Shown: positions 24,607-60,222, counted from the stretch's first letter. The stretch is DNA of 64,000 nt from an uncultured Gemmataceae bacterium (GCA_963750165.1 CAVVPN010000004.1:768001-832000); one strand, 5' to 3'. The notes: generated by a model from the sequence alone, not told the origin. Made by a program: numbers and translations.

Positions 24607-25899
24607 ATGACGCCTACGGCCCGCACCGCCAGTGCTTGTCCCGATAGGCCACCCGTGACGCACGACGTTTGTTCGATCGACGACCTTGGCCCGCTGCCCG
24701 TGACCCGGCCCACCTCGGTCGCGGAACTGGGCGAGATCGTCCGCCGCGCCGCCGCCGACGGTCAGGCCCTTTACCCGCTCGGCGGCCGCACTTCCCTCGA
24801 CTACGGTTTGCCCCCCACCCGCCCCGGCCTCGGCGTCGATCTGCGCGGCCTGAACCGCGTCATCGACTACCCGGCGCGCGACATGACCGTCACCGTCCAG
24901 GCCGGCGTCACCGTCGCGGAGTTGCGACGGCTTCTGGCGGCGGAAGAGCAGCGCCTGCCCATCGACGCACCGCACGCGGAGACGGCGACGCTCGGCGGCC
25001 TGCTCGCCACCAACCACAGCGGCCCGCGCCGCTACGGCTGGGGCACCCTGCGCGACTACGTCATCGGCAGCAGCGTCGTCAACGACCGCGGCGAAGAAAC
25101 CCGGGCCGGCGGCCGCGTCGTCAAGAACGTCGCCGGCTACGACCTGCCCAAGCTGCACATCGGCGCCCTGGGCACGCTCGGCGTCATCACGCAGGTGACG
25201 CTCAAGCTGCGGCCGCTGCCGGAGGAGCAGGCCCTGCTCGTGCTGTGCTGCGGCGGCGACCGGCTGGAAGCGACGCTGGAAACGCTGCACCGTTCGCGGA
25301 CACGGCCGGTCTGCCTTGAAGTGTTCAACGCCGCCGCCCTACCATACACGGACCTGCGCCTGTCGGCCGAGCCCGGCACGTGGGCCGTCGTGGCCGGCTA
25401 CGAGGACAACCTGGATTCCCTCAACTGGCAGGTGCCGCAACTGGTGCGCGAGTTGCGGGCGGCGCTACCGGTCATGGGCCGGATCGGCGCGCTGGCGGCG
25501 CCGTGGTGGCAAGGACTGGCCGAGTTCGCGGCCTGGCCCGGAGCGGCGCTGACCTTCCAGGCGGCACTGCGGCCTTCGGGGCTGGCGGCCTTTTGCCTGG
25601 AACTGGCCGGACTGCCGCAGGGGCTGCTGTTGCAGGCACACGCGGGCAACGGCGTCGTCGTCGGCCATGTGCCGTCGGGAGTGCCGCAGAGCGAAGCCGA
25701 GGGGTGTGTGCGACAGGCGCGGCAGCTGGCGGCGCGGGCGCAGGGTCATGTGGTGGTGCAGCGCTGTCCCGCGGCGTGGAAGAAAACGCTGTCCGTCTGG
25801 GGGCCGGCGCCGGAGAGTGCCTGGCTCATGCGTGCCGTCAAGGAACAGTTCGACCCGCAGCGGCTGTTCAACCCCGGCCGCTTCGTGGATGGCATTTGA
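24607..25899 (+). CDS. glcE: Glycolate oxidase FAD-binding subunit (start may be GTG at 24655)
   Basis: GGRVVKNVAGYDL, GALGTLGVI and FDP..LFNPGR motifs. Confidence 0.9.
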   Translation: MTPTARTASACPDRPPVTHDVCSIDDLGPLPVTRPTSVAELGEIVRRAAADGQALYPLGGRTSLDYGLPPTRPGLGVDLRGLNRVIDYPARDMTVTVQAGVTVAELRRLLAAEEQRLPIDAPHAETATLGGLLATNHSGPRRYGWGTLRDYVIGSSVVNDRGEETRAGGRVVKNVAGYDLPKLHIGALGTLGVITQVTLKLRPLPEEQALLVLCCGGDRLEATLETLHRSRTRPVCLEVFNAAALPYTDLRLSAEPGTWAVVAGYEDNLDSLNWQVPQLVRELRAALPVMGRIGALAAPWWQGLAEFAAWPGAALTFQAALRPSGLAAFCLELAGLPQGLLLQAHAGNGVVVGHVPSGVPQSEAEGCVRQARQLAARAQGHVVVQRCPAAWKKTLSVWGPAPESAWLMRAVKEQFDPQRLFNPGRFVDGI

Positions 25900-25921
25900 G
25901 ACAGAGAAAGGCTCTTTTTCC

Positions 25922-27276
25922 ATGACCGCTCCCGCCGACGCCGCCCGCACGCCACTGCCGCTGACCGCCGCGCCGGCGCTCAAGGCCGACATCGACTACG
26001 AACTGTTCCTGGACTGCGTTCACTGCGGCCTGTGTACGTCCGCGTGCCCGACCTACGTGGAGCTGGGCGACGAGAACGACAGCCCGCGCGGCCGCATTTA
26101 CCTGATGCGCGCCGTCACCGACGGCCGCGCCCCGCTCGACGATGCCGTGCGCCGCCACCTCGACCTGTGCCTGGACTGCCGGGCGTGCGAGTCGGCGTGT
26201 CCGTCGGGGGTGCAGTACGGCAAACTGATCGAGCCGTTCCGCCTGCACCTGGAAACGGCGGCACCGCGGCCGGACCAGCTCGGCTTCTTCAAGCGACTGG
26301 CGCTGTACCATCTGACGCCCTACGCCGGACGCATGCGTCTGGCGCTGGCGCCGTGCGCTGGCTGCAATGGCTCGGCATCGACGGCCTGCTGCGCCGCGTC
26401 GGCTTTTACAAGTTGATGCCGCGGTCGCTGCGCCAGCTGCACGACATGCTGCCGTGGCGGCTGCAGCCGGCGCGCGGCCGCTTGCCCGAGGTGCTGCCGG
26501 CGGAGGGCAAGCGGCGCGCGCGCGTGGCCCTGTTCACCGGCTGCGCCGGCGACGCCTTTTTGCCGCAGACCACCGTGGCGACCGCCCGCGTGCTGCAGCG
26601 CAACGGCTGCGAGGTGTGGGTGCCGCGGCAGCAGGTTTGCTGCGGAGCGCTGCACTACCATGCCGCGCGCGCGGAGCCGGCCCAACAATTCGCGACGACC
26701 AACTGCGACGTGTTCGGCCCGGCGCTGTCGGGGCAGCTGGAACAGGTGGACGCGATCATCACGAACGCCGCCGGCTGCGGGGCGATGCTCAAGGATTACG
26801 GCCATCTGCTGCACGACGGCGCGGCGGCAGCGGTGGCGGGCGCGTTCGCGAAGAAGGTGCGCGACATCAGTGAGTTCCTGATGGAACTCGGCCCCGTGCC
26901 GCCGGAGCATCCATTGAAGCTGAAGGCGACCTATCACGACGCCTGTCATTTGTGCCACGGCCAGCAGATCCGCAAGCAGCCGCGGCAACTGCTGGAGATG
27001 ATCCCGGGATTGGAACTGGTGCCGCTGGCGGAGTCGGAAATCTGCTGCGGCGCCGCGGGCAGCTACAACCTGACGCAGCCGGAGATGGCCGAGCGGCTGG
27101 GGCGGCGCAAGGCGAAGCACATTCTCGACACCGGGGCGGCGGCGGTCTTCAGCGGCAACGTCGGCTGTCTGCTGCAACTGGGGCGGTATCTGCGCGAGCA
27201 GCGGCCGGATTTGTGGATCGCGCACCCGATTGATGCGCTGTGGGCGAGCTATAGCGGGACGAAGCCGGGGAGGTGA
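25922..27276 (+). CDS. glcF: Glycolate oxidase Fe-S subunit (frameshift at about 26353)
   Basis: CVHCGLC..CP, CLDCRAC..CP, CCG domains and YHDACHL. Confidence 0.9.
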
Positions 27277-31372: not shown

Positions 31373-31714
31373 CGTGATCGACCTCGGGCCTCTTTCCCGG
31401 CGAATGCGTACGTTCGTGGTCGCGGCGTACGCATTCGTTTGATCAGGCTGGCCGCCAATCTGCCGCATCTATTGAATCATCATCTTCTTGGTATTGGGGC
31501 GGCGAGTTAGGACTCGCCCCGCCGGTGCATTTATCGTCGCTTGCGGGATCGCACCGGCCAACTCTCCCGCATAAGGCAATTTGCGCAATCCGCTCCGGTC
31601 CGACACGCCGAAGCAGTTTCGGACCGAAGCGTACAAGGCTACATTTCGCGACGGCGCAACCATTGGTGTGACACTTTCGCTTTACAATTCCTGGTTACGG
31701 CAATAAAGGTTTCC

Positions 31715-31897
31715 ATGATGAAGGACGATCCCACCATTCAAGCAGTGCGCAAAGCGCGGCACCGGATTTCGGAAAGGGTCGGGCACGACCCGCGGAAACT
31801 GGTGGAGCACTACCGCAAACTCCAGGAGCGTCATTGCGACCGCCTCCTCGCGCCAGCCACCCCGCGGTCGAACACGGAAGGCGAGAACGCCGCTTGA
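31715..31897 (+). CDS. Small hypothetical protein (antitoxin-like helical peptide)
   Basis: MMKDDPTIQAVRKARHRISERVGHDPRKLVEHYRKLQ resembles small D-P-I/T-x-x-VR proteins that I recall next to PIN toxins. Confidence 0.55.
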   Translation: MMKDDPTIQAVRKARHRISERVGHDPRKLVEHYRKLQERHCDRLLAPATPRSNTEGENAA

Positions 31898-32088
31898 CCA
31901 CGACGTTGGCGACTGCAGGAAACCCCAGGAACTGGGCGCCCGACACCTTTCCTAGCAGCAGTCCCGACCCGTTTTTGGTCATGTCCGCGGACTTTTCTGA
32001 AAAAAATCGGAAATGCGTGTCCACTTTTCCGCGCCGATTGCGATACCCCGGATAGAGGGCGTCGGTCCCTGCTCCCGAACCGTCTCTC

Positions 32089-34080
32089 TTGACCCGCGAG
32101 GTGTCCGTGCCAGCCCCGTTGCGAAACGCCACCTACCCCGTGCCCGCGTTCCGGCCGCTGCGCGTCTACGCCTTCGACCCGAGCCTGGCCACCCAGCTCG
32201 AAACGGCCGTCCTCAACCAGACCACCCTCAAGGTCATCTGGGAGAGCGAGCCGCGCACCGGTATCAGTATCCTGAAGCCGGGCCCCGTCGGCGAATACCT
32301 GGAAGTGGTCGATTACGACCCCGCCAGCCAGTGCTTCTACGCGCCGGTTGATCTGGACGACCCATCGCTGCTGGCCCAGGGCGGACTGCCGCCGTCGGAG
32401 GGCAACCCCAAGTTTCATCAGCAAATGGTCTACGCGGTGTCCATGACCACCATCCGCCACTTCGAGCGCGCCCTGGGCCGACTGGCCCTGTGGTCGCCGC
32501 GTCGCGCCGAGGACGGCGACGGCAAGATTCACTTCGAGTACGTGCCGCGGTTGCGCATCTACCCGCACGCGCTGCGCGAGGCCAACGCCTACTACAGCCC
32601 GGACAAGAAAGCGCTGCTGTTCGGCTACTTCCCCGCGTCGGCGGACCACCCCGACCTCAACCTGCCCGGCGGCCTGGTCTTCACCTGCCTGTCGCACGAC
32701 GTGGTCGCCCACGAGACCACGCACGCCCTGCTCGACGGCCTGCACCGCCGCTTCAACGAGGCCAGCAACCCCGACGTGCTCGCCTTCCACGAGGGCTTCG
32801 CCGATGTCGTCGCCCTGTTCCAGCACTTCAACAACCAGGACGTGCTGTTGCACCAGGTGGCGCGCACCCGCGGCGATCTGGCCAGCCAGAACATGCTCGG
32901 TCAGCTGGCCCAGCAGTTCGGCCAGGCCATCGGCGGCTACGGCGCGCTGCGCGACGCCATCGGCTATGTGGACGACAAGGGCGACTGGCACCGGCAGAAG
33001 CCCAATCCGACCGCCTACCAGACGACGACGGAGCCGCACGCCCGCGGTTCCCTGCTGGTGGCGGCGGTCTTCGACGCCTTTCTGTCGATCTACAAGGCGC
33101 GCGTCGCCGACCTGCTGCGCATCGCCACCAAAGGCACCGGTGTGCTGCCGGCCGGCGACATCCACCCCGACCTGGCCCGCCGGCTGGCGTCCGAGGCCGC
33201 CAAGGCCGCCGGCCATGTGTTGGTCATGTGCATCCGCGCCCTGGACTACTGCCCGCCGGTGGACCTGACCTTCGGCGAGTACCTGCGGGCGCTGATTACC
33301 GCCGACGCCGACCTGGTGCCCGACGACGACCTGGGCTATCGCGTCGCCTTCATCGAGGCGTTTCGCTACCGCGGCATCTATCCGCGCGATGTGCGCACCC
33401 TGTCGGTCGAGAGCCTGCGCTGGCAGGCGGAGATCCCCGGCCTGACCGACAAGCAGCGGGCCGCCCTGCTGGTGGAACTGCGGAAGATCAAGCTCGACTG
33501 GAACCTGACCACCAACCGGGAGTCGGTGTACCACTCGGCGGAACTCAACCGCCTTGCCGTCCACGAGTGGCTGGTGAGCCACGACCTGGACAGGGCCTTC
33601 ACGCGGGCGCTGGGCCTGGCGCTGCACGACGACGCCCCGGCCACCATTGCCCGCCATCCGAAAACCAAACGCCCGCTGGTCGAGGTCCATTCGGTGCGCC
33701 CGGCCCGCCGCGTCGGCCCCGACGGCCAGTTGCTCGTGGACCTGATCGTCGAGATCACGCAACGACGGCTCGCCTTCCTCGACCCGAAGGAACAGGACAG
33801 GCACGACAAGGCGAAGACGCCCATCGACGTGAACGCCTTCGCGGAGCGGCGGCCCGAGGAGACGTTCGTCTTCCGCGGCGGCTGCACGCTGGTCGTTAGC
33901 ATGGAGAGCGCCGGCGTCCGCGCCTGCATTCGCAAGGACATCCTGAGCAGCAGCCGGTTGGAGCGCCAGCGCCGCTTCTTCCGCGACCCCACGGAGCGGT
34001 CGCTGCACGCCACGTATTTCGGCGACTTCCGCACCGGCGACGACAAGGAGCCGTTCGCCATGCTGCACCGCGACTTTTAG
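32089..34080 (+). CDS. Cytoplasmic thermolysin-like (M4/gluzincin) zinc metallopeptidase (start possibly GTG at 32107)
   Basis: NAYY; HETTH (HExxH, 32710-32724); FHEGFAD third ligand; EPH.RG; no signal peptide. Confidence 0.85.
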   Translation: MTREVSVPAPLRNATYPVPAFRPLRVYAFDPSLATQLETAVLNQTTLKVIWESEPRTGISILKPGPVGEYLEVVDYDPASQCFYAPVDLDDPSLLAQGGLPPSEGNPKFHQQMVYAVSMTTIRHFERALGRLALWSPRRAEDGDGKIHFEYVPRLRIYPHALREANAYYSPDKKALLFGYFPASADHPDLNLPGGLVFTCLSHDVVAHETTHALLDGLHRRFNEASNPDVLAFHEGFADVVALFQHFNNQDVLLHQVARTRGDLASQNMLGQLAQQFGQAIGGYGALRDAIGYVDDKGDWHRQKPNPTAYQTTTEPHARGSLLVAAVFDAFLSIYKARVADLLRIATKGTGVLPAGDIHPDLARRLASEAAKAAGHVLVMCIRALDYCPPVDLTFGEYLRALITADADLVPDDDLGYRVAFIEAFRYRGIYPRDVRTLSVESLRWQAEIPGLTDKQRAALLVELRKIKLDWNLTTNRESVYHSAELNRLAVHEWLVSHDLDRAFTRALGLALHDDAPATIARHPKTKRPLVEVHSVRPARRVGPDGQLLVDLIVEITQRRLAFLDPKEQDRHDKAKTPIDVNAFAERRPEETFVFRGGCTLVVSMESAGVRACIRKDILSSSRLERQRRFFRDPTERSLHATYFGDFRTGDDKEPFAMLHRDF

Positions 34081-34104
34081 AACCAGTGGCGGAAAGAACT
34101 GTCT

Positions 34105-34271
34105 GCGTTCGTAGTACCGCCTATTGCAGATTGCGAATGGATGTAGCGGAAGTCGCCAGACTTCCGAGCAGCACCGGACGGAAGTCTGGCGACTTCCGCT
34201 ACACCTAACTGCGAACCGCTCCAGGCGGAATCTGACTGGCTGATTCCGCCTAAAGGCGGTACTACGAACGC
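34105..34271. repeat. Nested REPINs (GTAGTACCGCCT outer pair, GTAGCGGAAGTCGCCAGACTTCCG inner pair)
   Basis: Inverted arms are visible; the inner REPIN also occurs at 60383-60439. Confidence 0.85.
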
Positions 34272-34324
34272 AGAATCCAGAGGACGCCCGCTTTCCGCCA
34301 CAACTTGTTAACAGCGAGGCCCCC

Positions 34325-35768
34325 ATGAGCAAAGCCCCCGTTCACCCGCAGACGGCCGGCGAGGTCAGCGTCCGCATGTATCGCCAGGGCCTTGGCGACT
34401 GCTTCCTGCTCACCTTCCCCACGGCTACTGGGGACCCGTTTTTCATGCTCATCGACTGTGGCGTCATCCTCGGCACGCCGGACCCGGAACCCAAAATGAC
34501 CGCGGTCGCCAAGGACATCCAGGAGACGACCGGCGGCCACCTCCATGCGCTGGTCGCCACGCACGAGCACTGGGACCACCTCTCGGGCTTCGTCCAGGCG
34601 AAAAAAGTCTTCGAGCAGATCGAGGTGGACGCGGTCTGGCTGGCCTGGACGGAGGATTCGAGCAACGCCGTGGCGCGGCGGCTCAAGGAGGACCGCCGGC
34701 GAACCCTGCGCCGTGCAGGGGGCGGTTACTCACCTGCAGGCCACGGGCGACGACCCGGACACTGCCGACAAGTTCGAGGGCGTGCTGAGCTTCTTCGGCG
34801 GCCTGGGCGCCAACGGCGCCGCCAAAACCGAGGACGCCCTGGCCTTTCTGCGCAGCCACGCCAAGTCGGTGCGCTTCTGCCGGCCCGGCGAGCCGCCGTT
34901 GACGCTGCCGGGGGTGCCGGGCGTGCGCGTCTTCGTGCTGGGCCCGCCGGAGGACCCGGCCGCCATCAAGCGGACCAACCCCAGCAAGCGCGACCGCGAA
35001 ACCTACGACGTCACAGCCGCGCTGACGGCGGAGGACGCCTTCCTGGCCGCGGTTCGCCATCGGACCGACAGCAACCTGAACAAGATGCACCCGGACGAAC
35101 GCACGGTGCTGGAACTGAGCTTCCCCTTCGACCAGGAGCTGAAAATCCCCGTCGTCCGGGCAAAGGAGGACGAGTTTTTCCAGAAACACTATGGCTTCCG
35201 CGCTGGCGGCCCCGACGCCTGGCGGCGGATCGAGGACGACTGGCTGGGCGGAGCCGGGCCGCTGGCGCTGCAGCTGGACAATGCCACCAACAACACGAGC
35301 CTGGCGCTGGCCATCGAACTGTCGCCGGGCGGCAAGGTGCTGCTGTTCCCGGGCGACGCCCAGGTGGGCAACTGGCTGTCCTGGGAAAAGTGTTCCTGGT
35401 CGCTGACCGAGGGCGGCCACACGGTGCATGTCACCAGCGCTGACCTGCTGGCCCGCACGGTCCTGTACAAGGTCGGCCATCACGCCAGCCACAACGCCAC
35501 GCTGCGGGCCAAGGGGCTGGAGCTGATGACCAGTCCCGAACTGGTGGCGATGATTCCCGTGGACCACGACATGGCCGTCATCAAGCGCTGGGACATGCCC
35601 TTCGAGTCGCTGTTGCAGCGGTTGCTGGAGAAGACCGGCGGGCGGGTGCTGCGCATCGACAAGGGGCTGCTGGACCGGCCGAAGAGTGTGCCGGCCAAAC
35701 AGTGGCAGACGTTTCGCGACCGGGTCACGGTCACCGACCTGGCCCTGGACTATGACATCACTCCTTGA
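34325..35768 (+). CDS. ComEC/Rec2-type MBL-fold metallo-hydrolase, putative nuclease (frameshift at about 34710)
   Basis: GLGDCFLL, LIDCG, THEHWDH (HxHxDH), NNTSL, LLFPGDAQ and KVGHHAS motifs; restoring a GC in CTGCGC(GC)CGTG joins the two ORFs. Confidence 0.88.
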
Positions 35769-35777
35769 GGAACGCTC

Positions 35778-36806
35778 ATGGCACGCAAGCGCTCGACAAC
35801 GCCTCACACCGGCAAGCCGCGCCGCCGCGCCCCGACCCCAGCGGCGGCGCCCACCGCCGCGGCGGCCGCGGACCAGTACCTGGTCTATGTCCACGGCATC
35901 TGCGCGCACAGCGCCGGCTACTCCGATCCGTGGTGGGCGGCGCTGAAGCCCTACGTGACCACCGTCCCGGACGCGAACCGCAAGGAAGTGCTCTGGAGCG
36001 ATGTCATCACGCCGGCGGCCGCCCCGGCGGCACAACCGATGTCCCGCGAGGAGCGGTTCGCGCTGCGACTGACCCGGGCGCAGGCACCGACCACAGCCGA
36101 CCCGCGTGCCACCGCGCTGGCCGCGCAGGTCATGGACGTGCTCGCCGACCGGGTGCAGCAGCAGCAGTTGGTGGCCGCGGCCGCGCCCGGCCCCGGGGTC
36201 GCCCCGGCCGCCGCAGCCCTGGGGCCGGCGTCCGCGCAGAACTTCCTGGTGGCGGAGGCCGCGGCGCCGCTGCCCTTCCTGGGGCTGCCGGACTTCGAGT
36301 GCATCAGCGACTTCATGAGCTACCTGCTCAACAACGACATTCGCACCCAGGTCATGGACCGCTTCGCCGCGGTCGTCGAGCCGTTGCTGGCGGCCGGCAG
36401 CGAGGTCCACGTCATCAGCCACAGCTGGGGCACGGTGGTCGCCTACGAGGCCCTGCGCCGCATGGACGGCGCCCACCCCGAGTACGCCGACGGCAGCGTC
36501 CTGAACCTGTTCACGGTGGGCAGCGCCCTGGCCATCGCGCCGGTGAAGCGCAACTTGCTGCCCAGCGACATTGACGGCCGGCGGCCGCGCCTGGTCCGCA
36601 CCTGGGTCAACCTGGACGCGCGCTTCGACGTGGTCGGCGGCCCGCTGAGCGGCAACCCGTTCCAGGTGGACGCGGAGTATCTGAACCTGCCGCCGGTCGG
36701 CTGTTCGATGTGGATCCCCAACCCGGTGTGCGCGCACGGCTCCTACTTCCAGGCGGCCAACGTCACGGTCAACGAAGGCATCTTCGGCAAGTACATGTCC
36801 GGCTGA
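35778..36806 (+). CDS. Alpha/beta hydrolase (lipase/PGAP1-like)
   Basis: VYVHGI, SHSWG nucleophile elbow, TVGS, D.V and HGSY; starts 9 nt after the MBL stop. Confidence 0.8.
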   Translation: MARKRSTTPHTGKPRRRAPTPAAAPTAAAAADQYLVYVHGICAHSAGYSDPWWAALKPYVTTVPDANRKEVLWSDVITPAAAPAAQPMSREERFALRLTRAQAPTTADPRATALAAQVMDVLADRVQQQQLVAAAAPGPGVAPAAAALGPASAQNFLVAEAAAPLPFLGLPDFECISDFMSYLLNNDIRTQVMDRFAAVVEPLLAAGSEVHVISHSWGTVVAYEALRRMDGAHPEYADGSVLNLFTVGSALAIAPVKRNLLPSDIDGRRPRLVRTWVNLDARFDVVGGPLSGNPFQVDAEYLNLPPVGCSMWIPNPVCAHGSYFQAANVTVNEGIFGKYMSG

Positions 36807-36878: not shown

Positions 36879-37745
36879 ATGCTGGTCGATCTGGTGCAGG
36901 CGACGGCGCGGGACGGCGTGCGGCTGGACGGGGCGTTCCAGGCAGCGCCGGCCGGCACGCCCGCGGTGGCGGTGGACGGCTTCTGCCTGATCCACGGCAC
37001 CGGCGGCAATTTCTACAACTCCACCCTGTTCGACGTGCTCGCAGAGCGGCTGCTGCAACGCGGCAGTGCCGTGCTGCGCGCGAACACGCGCGGCCACGAC
37101 GGCATCAGCACCGCCGCCATGCCGCGCGGCGGCCGGCGCCTCGGGGCGGCCTACGAACTGTTCGACGACTGCCGCCACGACGTCGCCGCCTGGGTCGAGT
37201 GGCTGCGGCAGCGGGCCGGTCCGCGCGTTGGGCTGATCGGCCACAGCCTCGGGGCCGTGAAGTGCCTGTATGCTCAGGCCCAGGAGCCGGACGCGGCGGT
37301 GCGCTGCGTCGTCGCGGTGTCGCCGCCGCGGCTGTCGTATGCGTGGTTCTGCCAGAGCGCGGCGCGCGACGAGTTTCTGCGAACCTTCGCCCAGGCGGAG
37401 GCGTATGTACACGACGGTCAACCGCAGACGCTGCTGGACGTGAAGTTTCCGCTGCCCTACGTCGTGACCGCCGCCGGCTACCTCGACAAGTACGGGCCGG
37501 ACGAGCGCGTCAACTACCTGTCGTTCCTGCGCGGCGTGCCGTGTCCGGTGCTGGTGACGCTCGGCGGCATTGAAGTGGAGAACAACGTCGCGTTCCAGGG
37601 GGCGGCGGCGGAGCTGGAGCAACTGCGCCGGCCGCAGTTGACGGTCGCCACCGTCGCCGGGGCGGATCACTTTTACACCGGGACGCGGGCGGAACTGGCG
37701 GCGTGCGTGGAGGGCTGGCTGCGCACGGCGGTTGCAGCATTGTGA
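36879..37745 (+). CDS. Alpha/beta hydrolase
   Basis: IHGTGGNFY, GHSLG and GADHFY motifs. Confidence 0.85.
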   Translation: MLVDLVQATARDGVRLDGAFQAAPAGTPAVAVDGFCLIHGTGGNFYNSTLFDVLAERLLQRGSAVLRANTRGHDGISTAAMPRGGRRLGAAYELFDDCRHDVAAWVEWLRQRAGPRVGLIGHSLGAVKCLYAQAQEPDAAVRCVVAVSPPRLSYAWFCQSAARDEFLRTFAQAEAYVHDGQPQTLLDVKFPLPYVVTAAGYLDKYGPDERVNYLSFLRGVPCPVLVTLGGIEVENNVAFQGAAAELEQLRRPQLTVATVAGADHFYTGTRAELAACVEGWLRTAVAAL

Positions 37746-37842: not shown

Positions 37843-38786
37843 ATGAAAACACGTCTTGTCGGCAGCGCGGTGGTGGCGTGCGTGGTCCTCGTCGGTCTCG
37901 GCTGCGGCGAGGCGATGAAATCGGAGGCCCCGCCAGTGTCCAACGCCAAGGTAGACGTGGCCAGTAAAGACGCCCCGCCGGAAAAGATGATGCGTGGAAC
38001 GACGCACAAAGAAGCATATTTTGAGCGAGTCGGCCTGGATTTTGACCAGCAACCAGCGCCCGTCGTCCGCAAGGTCATCTACACGGCCACGCTCAAAATG
38101 GAGGTCGAGGATTTTCCCAAAGCAGCAGAGGAACTGGAGCGGCTGATCGAGGAACACAAGGCCATCCTGGAGCACACCGACATCACCGGCGGCGCGGCAG
38201 TTCCCGCTCAGGCCACTGGAAGGTCCGCATCGCTCCGGAGAAGCGGGCCGCCTTCCAACGAGCCGTCGCCAAGCTAGGCGAGGTGGAACAGAACACCCTG
38301 AGCAGTCAGGACGTGACCGAGGAGTACGTGGACCTGAGCCGGCGCATCCAGAACAAGGAAGCGGAGGTGCAAAGCTACCGCGAACTGTTCAAGGAGGCGA
38401 AAAAGATCCCGGACATCCTGAGCGTTTCGGAGAAACTGTATCAAGCCCAGGAAAACCTGGAACGGCTTCAGGGCCGCAAGAAATACCTGGAGAGCCTGTC
38501 CGACCTGGCGACCGTCAACGTCTACCTGGGCGAGCGCGGCGTCTACGTACCGGCGGAAAGCCTGGACTTCGGCACCAGCGTCGGCCGGACGTTCTCGGGC
38601 TCGGTCAACGCCCTGGTGCAGTTCGGCCGCGGTGCGGCGCTGGTGGCGGTGGCGCTGGTGCCGTGGCTGCCGATCATGCTGGTGATCGGGGTGCCAGTTT
38701 TCCTGGCGTGGCGGCACCACCGGCGTCAGGCCATTCCGACCGTGACGGAGGTGCCGCCGTCGGCCGCGCCGCCGACCCAGGGGTGA
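37843..38786 (+). CDS. DUF4349 domain lipoprotein (frameshift at about 38195)
   Basis: Lipobox LGLGC-like; RKVIYTA, QDVTEEYVD..R and LATV motifs; C-terminal TM. Confidence 0.85.
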
Positions 38787-39535: not shown

Positions 39536-41613
39536 ATGGACGCCAGCGCCTCCCCCCTGGACGAACCCGTGCAGTTCCTCAAGGGCGTCGGCCCCGCCCG
39601 GGCCGAGGTGCTCCGCCGCCTCGGCATCCTCACCGTCCGCGACCTGCTCTTCCACTTCCCCCGCGCCTACGAAGACCTCAGCGACGTGCGGCCCATCGCC
39701 CAGCTGACCGCCAACGCCACCGTCACCGTCCAGGGTGAGGTCGTCGAGATCGATGGCAAGCAGCTGCCGGACGGCCGCACCATCGTCAGCGTCGTCATCA
39801 GCGACAACGGCCGCGACTGCCTCGAAGGTGCCTGGTTCAACCAGACACACATCGCCCGCCGCTTCCGCTACGGCCAGCGCGTCGCCTTCAGCGGCAAGGC
39901 GACCTGGTTCCGCGACCGCTGGCGCATGGCCAACCCGCGCGTGCAGGACGCCGACGCCAGCAACCCTGCCACCCCCGGCGTCGTGCCCGTCTACCCGCTC
40001 ACCGAGGATCTGCGGCCCGACACCCTCCGCGCCCTGCTGCGGCAGACGCTGCCGACGCACGCCGGCCACGTCCCCGAAGTGCTGCCGGACGCCCTGCGCA
40101 CTCAGCACGGACTGCCGGAGGTGCGCCAGGCTCTGAACGACATCCACTTCCCGGCGACGCTCGCGGCAGGGCAGACGGCCCGGCGCCGCTTCGTCTACGA
40201 GGAACTGCTGCTGCTGCAGGTGGCGCTCGGCGTGCGCCGCCGAGATCTGCGCGACCGCCAGCGCGCCCGAAGCTGCCGGTCACCGCCGCCATCGACGAGC
40301 GCATCCGCCGGCTGTTCCCGTTTCAGCTCACCGGCGACCAGGAGAAGGTGATCGCGGAGCTGCGCCGCGACCTGGCCAGCGACCGGCCGATGCAGCGGCT
40401 GCTGCAGGCGGACGTGGGCGCCGGCAAGACGGCGGTGGCGGTGTACGCGCTGCTGGCGACCGTCGCCAACAAACATCAGGCGGCGCTGATGGCCCCGACG
40501 GAGGTGCTGGCCCGGCAGCACTCCCGCACGCTGGATCGCTACCTGGCGCACAGCCGGGTGCGGCGGCTGCTGCTGACCGGCGGGCTGACGGCGAAGGAGC
40601 GGCGCACGGCGCCGGCGGCGCTGAAGGCCGGCGACGTGGACCTGGTCGTGGGCACGCAGGCGCTGGTGCAGCAGGACGTGGAGTTCGCGCGGCTGGGCCT
40701 CATCGTCATCGACGAGCAGCACAAGTTCGGCGTCAACCAGCGGGCGCGGATGCGCAAGCTCGGCGTCGATCCGCACTATTTGGTCATGACCGCGACGCCG
40801 ATCCCGCGCACCGTGGCGCTGACGGTGTTCGGCGACCTGGATTTGTCGATCATCAAGCAGATGCCGCCGGGCCGCCGGCCGGTGACGACACGCTGGCTAC
40901 CGGAGGCGGAGCGGCCGCGGCTGTACGAGCGGCTGGCGGGCGAGCTGCGGCAGGGCCGGCAGGGCTACATCGTCTGTCCGCTGGTGGAGGAGTCGGAGGC
41001 GCTGGACCTGCGGGCGGCAGAGCAGACGCACGCCGAGTTGCAGGCGGGGCCGTTCCGTGCGTTCCGTGTCGGTCTGCTGACGGGCCGCATGGACGAGTCG
41101 GCGAAGGACGCGGTGATGCAGCAGTTCCATCAGAAGCAACTGGACCTGCTGGTGAGCACGATGGTGATCGAGGTCGGCGTCGATGTGGCGAACGCGACGT
41201 TCCTGGTGATCGAACATGCGGAGCGTTTCGGGCTGTCGCAGCTGCACCAGTTGCGCGGGCGCGTCGGCCGCGGCGGCTTGGCGGGCCAGTGCTACGTGTT
41301 CGCGCACGCCGGCAATGACGAGGCGAAGGCGCGGTTGCAGGCGTTCACGCGCACGGCGGACGGCTTCGCCCTGGCGGAGGTGGACGCGAAGTTGCGCGGC
41401 AGCGGCGAATTGCTGGGCACGAAGCAGTCGGGGCTGGGTGAGCTGCGCTGGGCGGACCTGGACGCGGATCGGGAGTTGTTGCGGGTGGCGCGGCACGATG
41501 CGTTCGCGCTGGTGGCGGCGGACGCGGGGCTGCGGCAGCCGGAGCACGCGGCGCTGCGGCGGGCGGTGCTGGAGCGCTACGGCAAGACACTGGATTTGGC
41601 GGAGATTGGCTGA
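39536..41613 (+). CDS. recG: ATP-dependent DNA helicase RecG (frameshift at about 40268)
   Basis: LKGVGP, wedge domain WFNQ, DVGAGKT, DEQH, MTATPIPRT and QLHQLRGRVGRG motifs. Confidence 0.95.
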
Positions 41614-58206: not shown

Positions 58207-60222
58207 ATGCGTAAGTGGATGTTGATCGCCTCCGGCGTGGCCATCATTGGCGTTACTGTGCTCGTCGGCCAGGCGCTGACCCAGGACGGCTCGAAGAAGG
58301 CCGCCGAGGGGGCAGTGCCGCAGAAGTCGGCCAAGAGCCGCATCTCCAGGGTCACCGTCTATCCCGACAGCGCCCTCGTCACCCGCGAGGTCGAGGTGCC
58401 CGAGGGCAGCGGCCTGACCGAACTGGTCGTCACCAACCTGCCGGCGCGTCGTCAACAACTCGCTGTACTCCGAGGGCACCGACGGCATCCGTGTGCTGAG
58501 CATGCGCTTCCGCACGCAGGAGGTCTTCGAGGACACCCGCGCGGACGTGCGCAAGCTTGAGGACGAGATGAAGACGCTGCGGCTGGCGGCGGAAAAGCTC
58601 GCCTCGGAAATCAACGCACTCAAGCAGAACATGATGCTGGTGAGCAAGCTGGAGGACTTCACGACCAAAACGACCGTCCACTCGACCGAGAAGGGCGGGC
58701 TGAACGGCGACACCGTCATCACGCTCACCAATTACCTCATGAAGCAGCGCGATGACAAGGCGCGCGACCTGGTCAAGCTCGATCAGGAGTTGCAGGTCAA
58801 CAAGGAGCAGAGCGAGTTCTGCAAGCGCAAGATGGGCCAGCTGTCCCGCGGCACCAGCAAAACCGAGCGCGACGCCATCATCGTCATCGACCGCGACCAG
58901 AGCGCCAAGGGGGCGAAGGTGCGCCTCAACTACCTGGTCGATGCCGTCTCGTGGAAGCCGCAGTACAAGCTGCGTGCCGGCAAGGGCGGCGAGGCGGTGC
59001 AGATCGATTACCTGGCGTCGCTGGTGCAGCACTCCGGCGAGGACTGGAACCAGGTGGCGCTGACCTTCTCCACCGCGGCGCCGATGCAAAATGCCGCTCC
59101 GCCTGATCTGAAGAAGCTCGAAATCGTCGTCGTGGATCGCGCCGGGCGCAGCTGGCCGCCACCGAGCGTGCCGCTCCGCCCGTGTTCGCCGCCCCGCCCC
59201 CCCCGATGGTCCCACCGGTGGTGGGCAACGGGCTGAACGCGGCATCGCCGGGTTTCAACTTCAGCAAGACGGTTCCCTTGCCCCCGGGCGGGATGGGTGG
59301 GTTTGGCCAGGCCAACAAGGGCGGTGGGATGGGTGGGATGGGCTATGGGGGCCAGGCCCAGTTCGCCCCCGCGTACAACAACGCCGCCAACGTCCTGCGG
59401 CAGCAGGCAATCCAGTCGTACAACAACAAGGACGTGGCCACCGGTGCCAGGCTGCTTAACGAGTCGGCCGCCTTGAAGCAGAACCTGGAGCTGATGAAGA
59501 CGAAGGAAGAGATTGCCCAGGAAAAGCAGCCGCAGAAGAAGAGCGACCTCATCGCCGCCGGCACCGAGGAAGGGCCGAGCACCACCTACAACTTGAAGCA
59601 GCGGCTGAGCGTGCCGTCGCGTAACGACGAGCAGGTCGTCGAGATCGCCAAGCTCAAACTCCAGCCGAAGTTCTACTACAAGGCGGTGCCGGTGCTGAGC
59701 CGCTCGGTGTACCGCCTGGCTGACCTGGTCAACGACAGCCAGATTGTGTTACTGCCGGGCGAGGCGACGATGTACCAGGGGACAGACTTCGTGGGCCGGA
59801 TGCGGTTGCCGCTGGTGGCGGTCGGCGAGGAGTTCACCGCCGGCTTTGGCGTGGACCCGCAGTTGCAGGTGCAGCGGCAGATGCTCGACAAGGAGCGCAA
59901 GACGCAGGGCGGCAACCAGGTCCTCAAATACGAGTACCGCATCCTGGTGAGCAGCTACAAGAAGGACAAGGTCGCCGTCCAAATCTGGGACCGGCTGCCG
60001 CACTCCGGCGAGGCCGAGTCCGCCAACGTCATCCTGGCCAGGACCAAGCCGGAGTTGAGCGAAGACGCCATCTACCTGCGCGAGCAGCGGCCGAGCAACC
60101 TGCTGCGCTGGGACCTGGAGCTGGCGCCGGGCATGAGCGGCGAGCACGCCCTGGCCATCCATTACGAGTTCCGCCTCGAACTCGACAAGATGAAGGTCAT
60201 CCAGAACGTCCTGTCCCGCTGA
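58207..60222 (+). CDS. DUF4140/DUF4139 exported protein, copy 3 (frameshifts at about 58447 and 59147)
   Basis: Three ORF pieces colinear with copy 2. Confidence 0.85.

Follow-up and report, generated by a model that had tools for sequence, protein, structure and literature searches.

A two-gene unit, in which a zinc protease gene is followed on the same strand by a gene for a ComEC-like hydrolase of the metallo-beta-lactamase (MBL) fold, lies at positions 32089 to 35768 of a 64,000-nucleotide stretch from an uncultured Gemmataceae bacterium (GCA_963750165.1, CAVVPN010000004.1:768001-832000; this whole stretch is hereafter the window). The protease-MBL pair is a conserved, widespread and mobile unit. 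We class it with the protease-MBL pro-nuclease modules already described, as a variant whose metalloprotease partner is new with respect to the literature searched, where figures may already show the family. The reading that we modestly favour, at somewhat better than even confidence, is that of a mobile module whose zinc protease likely unlocks the MBL as a DNase, killing or arresting the phage-infected cell. An initial annotation of the window had seen three co-oriented genes here, the third coding for an alpha/beta hydrolase, and all three are present with the motifs claimed, each as a single copy in the window genome (an assembly of 9.6 Mb in 12 contigs, 66% GC, 93% complete).

That the protease and the MBL are kept together across genomes, as the initial annotation expected, is borne out by a neighbourhood survey and by congruent trees. 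Among the best 80 of at least 578 GTDB matches, the MBL gene lies downstream of the protease gene on the same strand in 76 loci and within 600 nt of it in 75, the remaining four loci being cut by contig ends (0-153 nt left); the median distance from the protease end to the MBL match is 30 nt. In 201 genomes of the host's own family the protease occurs in 18, the MBL in 17 and both in 16, the unpaired cases being two weak partial protease matches and a single MBL whose assembly is fragmented. Copy numbers of the two genes also agree (4/4 in genome G104, 2/2 in G065, G078 and G123). Trees built from 85 protease-MBL pairs have strongly correlated distances (r=0.75, with a maximum of 0.13 over 999 permutations) and 45 of 82 splits in common. 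Host phyla interleave in the pair tree (25 changes of phylum where 11 would be the minimum) and the four copies of G104 fall at four different places. The trees show that protease and MBL have been transferred jointly, and this co-inheritance fits functional coupling without proving it. Twenty-eight plasmids carry the protease at 80% coverage or more. Most hosts are Acidobacteriota, Planctomycetota, Bacteroidota, Chloroflexota and Myxococcota with large genomes, and intact pairs are present in cultured Hymenobacter, Stieleria, Mesorhizobium and Deinococcus.

The features of the locus are the following.
32089-34080, plus strand: zinc protease of 663 aa, cytoplasmic and of the thermolysin/fungalysin fold (M4/M36-like), with intact HExxH, E235 and H317
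33424-34077, plus strand: aa 446-663 of the protease, an extra C-terminal domain built of helices and beta-sheet, with a conserved EPFxxLH tail
34325-35768, plus strand: ComEC-like MBL-fold hydrolase, predicted pro-nuclease by fold and profile matches, about 480 aa, with one frameshift
34646-34865, plus strand: first insert of the MBL (insert 1), about aa 108-180, made of a helical hairpin and a low-confidence Gly-rich loop
about 34700-34735, plus strand: frameshift in the MBL gene, a probable assembly error
34947-35291, plus strand: second insert of the MBL (insert 2), about aa 208-322, whose end is a conserved WRxIxxxW segment ahead of NNTS
35778-36806, plus strand: accessory alpha/beta hydrolase with S216, D284 and H320; it belongs to a protease-associated family, contains a low-complexity insert of 99 aa and is not fused to a caspase

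The first protein of the pair is clearly a protease of the M4/M36 fold. Its motifs are NAYY (166-169), HETTH (208-212), HEGFAD (234-239) and EPH (315-317), and the residues H208, E209, H212, E235 and H317 are each kept in 85/85 protease sequences. The AlphaFold model (mean predicted local distance difference test, pLDDT, 81.6; predicted template-modelling score 0.87) matches the M36 structure 7qp3 (Z 22.5, root mean square deviation (rmsd) 4.1, 323 residues aligned) and thermolysin (Z 18.6, rmsd 5.1, 290 residues), the next unrelated fold following at Z 9.8, and the top 25 Foldseek rows are all M4/M36. Identity to these fold relatives is only 12-15%, under the Pfam thresholds for M4 and M36. 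The window protease has no Pfam match at E<=0.1 and none in PADLOC or NCBIfam; a PF01447 profile search of five genomes found nothing, an hhalign comparison with a protealysin fragment was not significant, and a PDB sequence search with the single protease and three profiles gave a best E of 0.018. One homolog (P0033) does match PF01447, one distant homolog is labelled 'peptidase M4' in RefSeq, and the Atlas neighbours are named M4/M36. There are at least 8,000 homologs in all.

The absence of a signal peptide and of a propeptide, both noted at the outset, is upheld. A signal-like hydrophobic stretch is missing from the N-terminus of the window protease and from all 111 homologs starting with Met (0/111), in a scan where 6/6 secreted-looking window proteins used as a control scored positive. 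The first conserved motif stands a median of 23 aa from the start in these homologs, and the start given in one database record (P0005) is a further six codons downstream. As the match to mature M4/M36 proteases begins at residue 17-22 (and runs to about 440/442), an N-terminal propeptide would find no space ahead of it. Protealysin genes are paired with a gene for the inhibitor emfourin. The window protease shares with thermolysin (M4), fungalysin (M36) and protealysin the fold over residues 17-442 and the HExxH, Glu and His set; in contrast to them it has no propeptide and carries a 220-aa C-terminal domain, and what follows its gene is an MBL gene, not one for emfourin. Secretion, taken earlier as the norm for thermolysins, is known to have an exception, since protealysin, in the part of the source available, is likewise intracellular (PMC9505478).

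The C-terminal extension, put earlier at about 200 aa, measures about 220 aa and is a candidate regulator or sensor. The region aa 446-663 is barely covered by the fold search, and an Atlas search with it among named clusters gave no usable match. Its EPFxxLH tail is modelled with low confidence; the EPF..LH pattern is found in 78/85 single-domain homologs and H660 in 82/85. Other family members carry additions at the N-terminus. Tandem proteins longer than 1000 aa (a few partial ones included) have an N-terminal protease copy without intact HExxH+E in 22 of 28 cases, and tandem proteases among P0006-P0063, L003 and L059, with a first copy missing the catalytic Glu or a zinc ligand, are candidate pseudo-protease regulators. 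Among eight N-extended proteases scanned, six are fused to an S8 domain and one to TPR-S, one further S8 fusion being found outside these eight; two weak lipase-like fusions were also seen.

The second protein has a ComEC-like fold with its metal ligands intact. The motifs are GDC (24-26), THEHWDH (79-85), NNTS (322-325), GDA (343-345) and HHAS (385-388). The best fold match of its model (pLDDT 79.1) is the ComEC MBL 9ic4 (Z 23.7, rmsd 2.9, 255/480 residues aligned), followed by the phosphorylcholine esterase Pce (Z 19.9) and RNase J (Z 16.1). The motifs and the unusually long stretch between DH and NNTS (about 237 aa) described in the initial annotation are confirmed, and the break in the reading frame was hinted at there. 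A single frameshift at about 34700-34735 interrupts the gene. Read through with an X, the protein aligns with intact homologs over its full length, one column short at the break. With relatives' proteins as queries, frame changes occur in 4/31 testable loci of the window genome including the MBL (3/30 without it), and four other window genes are split into two frames (glcF-like, 25889-27273; DUF4349, 37843-38783; recG, 39536-41610; DUF4140/4139, 58207-59233), which points to indel errors in the assembly. As all MBL motifs are intact, an assembly error is the likelier cause of its frameshift as well, and by our own estimate a quite probable one.

The part of the MBL that does not align to ComEC consists of two inserts, present in all 85 sequences measured. 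Insert 1 (median 88 aa, range 68-122) comes after the strand following HxHxDH, and insert 2 (median 109 aa) lies between the 'GP' strand and NxS. Both are largely below pLDDT 70 in the model. The end of insert 2 is strongly conserved (R300 in 84/85, I/V302 in 85/85, W306 in 83/85). Both positions are shared with the loops of HamM and VcMBL (judged by eye, with proxies placed by alignment), I/V302 standing 20 residues ahead of NNTS and I218 of HamM 22. Two members with long additions were seen, P0407 (1049 aa, with a C-terminal 580 aa) and L033:12075-14759 (a very long second insert).

Profile searches also link the MBL to defence MBLs. The likeness to AVAST type 1 and Lamassu drawn in the initial annotation is found in the MBL alone: in PADLOC the protease and the hydrolase have no match, the MBL matches the LmuA-MBL profile, and the Avs1a profile stays far under its cut-off on the window proteins (21.7 bits against 420), both profiles matching only the N-terminal part of the window MBL. 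Among 52 MBL members, LmuA-MBL matches all and Avs1a 40. The sensor-fused trypsin-like protease and the core genes by which AVAST type 1, HamMAB and Lamassu hydrolase-protease systems are recognised are absent from the locus. At E<=1e-30 the MBL profile itself recovers 1,756 clusters (50% identity), and at the looser E<=0.001 it recovers 4,215. In a quick tree, provisional and with long branches, 25 MBLs linked to the protease family (support 90) separate from five Avs1a-profile matches (support 98). These five proxies comprise two beside S8 genes, one beside CHAT, and two whose partners, without Pfam match, were judged by eye as trypsin-like and CHAT-like. The two MBLs beside stand-alone S8 genes (L227, L230) group with the trypsin/CHAT proxies, apart from the pair MBLs. 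The deepest branch of the pair MBL group is a shorter, divergent MBL at L135:8085-12072, accompanied by an astacin and a divergent protease.

Proteolytic unmasking has been shown for MBL nucleases and alpha/beta hydrolases with other proteases (PMC12799240; 10.1101/2025.11.14.688446), so its logic is known rather than new; in the text available of these reports, HamM and VcMBL are cleaved at two Ile in two loops and then degrade DNA. HamMAB, Avs1a/Avs1b and VcMBL-VcAvs2 (PMC12799240; 10.1101/2025.11.14.688446; 10.1101/2025.09.03.673762), as far as the accessible portions describe them, likewise combine a protease gene with an adjoining gene for a ComEC-like MBL whose two inserts stand in the same places, and their trees are congruent too. 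Compared with these trypsin-like modules, within the same limits of the sources, the protease here is of the zinc M4/M36 fold, lies upstream and is free of fusion to a STAND, Hachiman, Lamassu or reverse transcriptase sensor, and the MBL, in a separate group, exceeds theirs by about 100 aa. The absence of an NTPase sensor, claimed from the start, holds for the operon. Canu (caspase-nuclease) and the S8-associated MBL clade 3 (10.1101/2025.11.14.688446), in the parts available, share with the pair an upstream protease, the lack of an NTPase and variable extra genes, and as in clade 3 some members here carry an S8 domain. The core here is without the caspase of Canu, and S8 occurs only in a minority, as a fusion to the zinc protease; from clade 3, represented here by two S8-linked proxies that group apart in the provisional tree, the separation is tentative, and the two may overlap. 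The literature and supplements searched, in which figures may already include the family and subscription papers are sparsely covered, contain no thermolysin, M4, M36 or gluzincin-MBL module. Protease-unlocked nucleases were previously shown for trypsin-like and caspase proteases, and a large further family, with no known sensor, would here be run by a metalloprotease. Two questions follow: how a thermolysin without propeptide is restrained inside the cell, and what triggers it.

For the pair, the zymogen state, the cleavage, the DNase activity and the anti-phage role are all predicted by analogy with HamM, Avs1a/VcMBL and CanC. The cytoplasmic zinc protease would cleave both inserts of the MBL, and the cleaved MBL would become a DNase that kills or arrests the phage-infected cell. 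Thermolysin prefers to cut before a hydrophobic residue. We would guess that the cuts fall before such a residue in the loops near 155-167 and 221-234 or at R-I302, and that the protease might be restrained until a signal, either by the C-terminal domain that it carries or through an addition at the N-terminus (dead protease copy, S8 or TPR-S). The alpha/beta hydrolase could be an optional second latent effector, in a slot filled elsewhere by patatin, Tle1-like or PLD lipases. A further reading, which we put forward tentatively and with rather low confidence, is that of a sensor-free death switch, in which the zinc protease would be its own sensor. Its conserved C-terminal domain would work like a propeptide placed at the tail end, the near-invariant terminal His covering the catalytic zinc, and dead protease copies, S8 or TPR-S domains would be swappable triggers. 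The freed metalloprotease would then open several effectors, DNase and lipase (patatin, Tle1-like or alpha/beta hydrolase) at once, the cut site of the hydrolase having shifted from a caspase-type Arg to a hydrophobic site. Were this true, a fourth protease class would enter pro-nuclease immunity, along with a new way of silencing a cytoplasmic thermolysin.

The genomic surroundings of the pair give a mixed picture as to defence. Clear defence islands surround it on four of six plasmids viewed (the six being our own pick). On one of these (NZ_CP123849.1), a patatin-protease-MBL arrangement adjoins HamA/HamB-type genes (L234:7815-16087), and in an unrelated host the pair stands directly beside such genes (L120:4012-12988). 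These two loci echo HamMAB with a different protease. Elsewhere on plasmids, the pair lies between CBASS and an ATPase-HNH pair, or beside ThiF/JAB systems, WYL or integrase genes. A HamA-helicase adjoins one G104 copy, and E2-ThiF-JAB plus MBL systems flank the pair at five Bacteroidota loci (L015, L041, L044, L051, L069). Other neighbours include SIR2-ATPase, SIR2, methylase, HamA, SLOG-patatin and caspase genes. A ThiF system also flanks the pair on a Deinococcus plasmid (L236), and a further ComEC-like MBL (PDC-M48B profile) repeatedly flanks it in Bacteroidota.

Several observations weigh against the pair being a phage-triggered nuclease switch. Most chromosomal neighbours are housekeeping genes, and two of the six plasmid loci viewed show no named defence system. 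In 38 chromosomal loci, with a custom gene caller that under-samples AT-rich genomes, PADLOC at 1e-25 matched 8/127 genes within 2.5 kb of the pair and 10/140 beyond 5 kb, leaving about four near and about four far once kinase, ABC, sigma54 and cyclase matches were removed. The window itself has no verifiable defence gene context around the three genes, so the local defence hotspot of the initial annotation finds no support. This lack of enrichment, the large-genome hosts, neighbours that include other proteases, kinases and STAND-WD40 proteins, and a single-sequence scan of viral contigs for close relatives in which no protease relative was found would all suit a role of the same protease-gated nuclease in cell death linked to stress, competition or development, as proposed for intracellular protealysin-type proteases. 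We consider this rather unlikely, as plasmid copies lie among CBASS, Hachiman-type and ThiF/JAB genes and the tested protease-MBL pairs in the portions of literature covered were all anti-phage.

Joint transfer on its own could yield congruent trees, and, the MBL grouping apart from the trypsin-, CHAT- and S8-linked proxies, its gating is inferred across clades. As for the cut sites, the WRxI segment sits in a predicted helix, and L160, tried as a conserved cut site, is kept among close homologs and in only 22/85 wider ones. The zinc protease might not be the direct activator: it could degrade the nuclease in the manner of an antitoxin, or act upstream of or in parallel to an S8 or caspase partner that does the cutting. 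S8 fusions, caspase-hydrolase fusions beside the pair and an insert 1 without strongly conserved hydrophobic site agree with this. We judge it unlikely all the same, since a second protease is missing from the operon in most loci, as it is in the window, and no zinc ligand varies (85/85). The second-best fold match of the MBL, the phosphorylcholine esterase, also counts against a nuclease; together with the lipid hydrolases common as neighbours and the housekeeping surroundings, it would fit a catabolic cluster of peptidase, phosphoesterase and lipase with no switch, the inserts being substrate caps. Such a cluster seems quite improbable given the lack of export signals, the patchy and mobile distribution, the dead protease copies and sensor fusions, and the profile matches to defence MBLs.

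The alpha/beta hydrolase is a genuine but optional accessory of the protease-MBL pair. Its gene begins 9 nt past the MBL stop, as first described, and codes for HSWG (215-218), D284 and H320. An obligate three-gene system, with the hydrolase as fixed third member, is ruled out by its absence from the best 80 GTDB pair loci (0/80); within the host's family it is present in 9/201 genomes. The window protein has no PADLOC or NCBIfam match, and NCBIfam gives only weak matches in 4/52 family members. Several of its 204 homologs are fused to caspase, trypsin or tyrosinase domains (the latter in P0254 and P0258), and one such caspase fusion immediately precedes the pair in G104. A metagenome survey of 80 hydrolase loci, many on short contigs, gave 47 groups at 85% identity, 25 of them caspase-fused; seven groups adjoin the pair, in both orders, and all seven are caspase-fused. 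Other neighbours of the hydrolase are a divergent HExxH protease (L121, L122, L160) and S8, S41 or CHAT proteins. These fusions and neighbours tie the family to proteases throughout, and it is met repeatedly beside the pair. Elsewhere the slot is taken by other lipases. Of 73 loci where an upstream gene was called, 14 have a patatin in that adjacent position and on the same strand, and Tle1-like or PLD lipases occur in other loci.

The window is the only case seen of an unfused hydrolase following the pair, neither the protein nor the operon having a caspase domain; the zinc protease is therefore the only operon partner of this hydrolase. The idea that the protease switches it on is weakened all the same, as the hydrolases recurring beside the pair carry their own caspase and the zinc protease need not activate them. 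The Ser-Asp-His triad, long insert and protease linkage of caspase-activated zymogens are found in the window protein; a partner caspase and Arg-Gly sites are not. The caspase-activated LcHydrolase (10.1101/2025.11.14.688446), in the text available, has its motifs arranged, by eye, as they are here (xHG, long insert, D-x-x-x-Y-L helix, HSxG, LxTxGS, late Asp/His), and the family here also has caspase- or trypsin-fused members; in contrast to it, the window hydrolase is without a caspase and without the Arg typical of the caspase-fused members. It has Leu where 17/19 caspase-fused members carry Arg, an Arg also found in 17/94 unfused ones. A switch at this Arg site, tried on four independent well-supported pairs, gave a median sign-test p of 0.5 and is a lead only.

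Around relatives of the hydrolase, a unit of hydrolase, divergent HExxH protease without MBL and small protein occurs at L121:7104-10616, L122:6635-10090 and L160:7911-11328; the small protein resembles the protease N-terminus and is possibly an inhibitor or decoy. At L143:2-1719 a protealysin-type M4 gene and emfourin stand directly upstream of a hydrolase-family gene. In one genus (L121, L127 and L128), the pair or the hydrolase is repeatedly surrounded by S1/P1 nuclease, astacin-like protease and patatin-like genes, as well as by one for an unfamiliar membrane protein of 1,300 aa.

Upstream of the protease gene, the lower-GC islet described earlier is real (58-63% at 27-32 kb, flanks about 67-70%); its supposed defence content is not borne out, the stretch encoding a TetR, two short-chain dehydrogenases/reductases and a TIGR03066-like protein. 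A match of the TIGR03066 type would point to a Gemmata-like planctomycete as host. The restriction-modification remnant could not be confirmed, the open reading frames scanned at the supposed remnant and antitoxin site having no Pfam match and 31380-31900 no match in plasmid blastn. The orphan antitoxin-like gene does correspond to a basic, helical open reading frame of 60 aa (31715-31897) without Pfam match, at most a possible antitoxin. Within the operon, the gap between protease and MBL genes (34081-34324, 244 nt) is much longer than in most relatives and holds an inverted repeat (about 34148-34200) that resembles an interspersed palindromic element and could influence co-transcription. A second, unrelated alpha/beta hydrolase gene (36879-37745) follows on the same strand, 72 nt downstream of the hydrolase gene.

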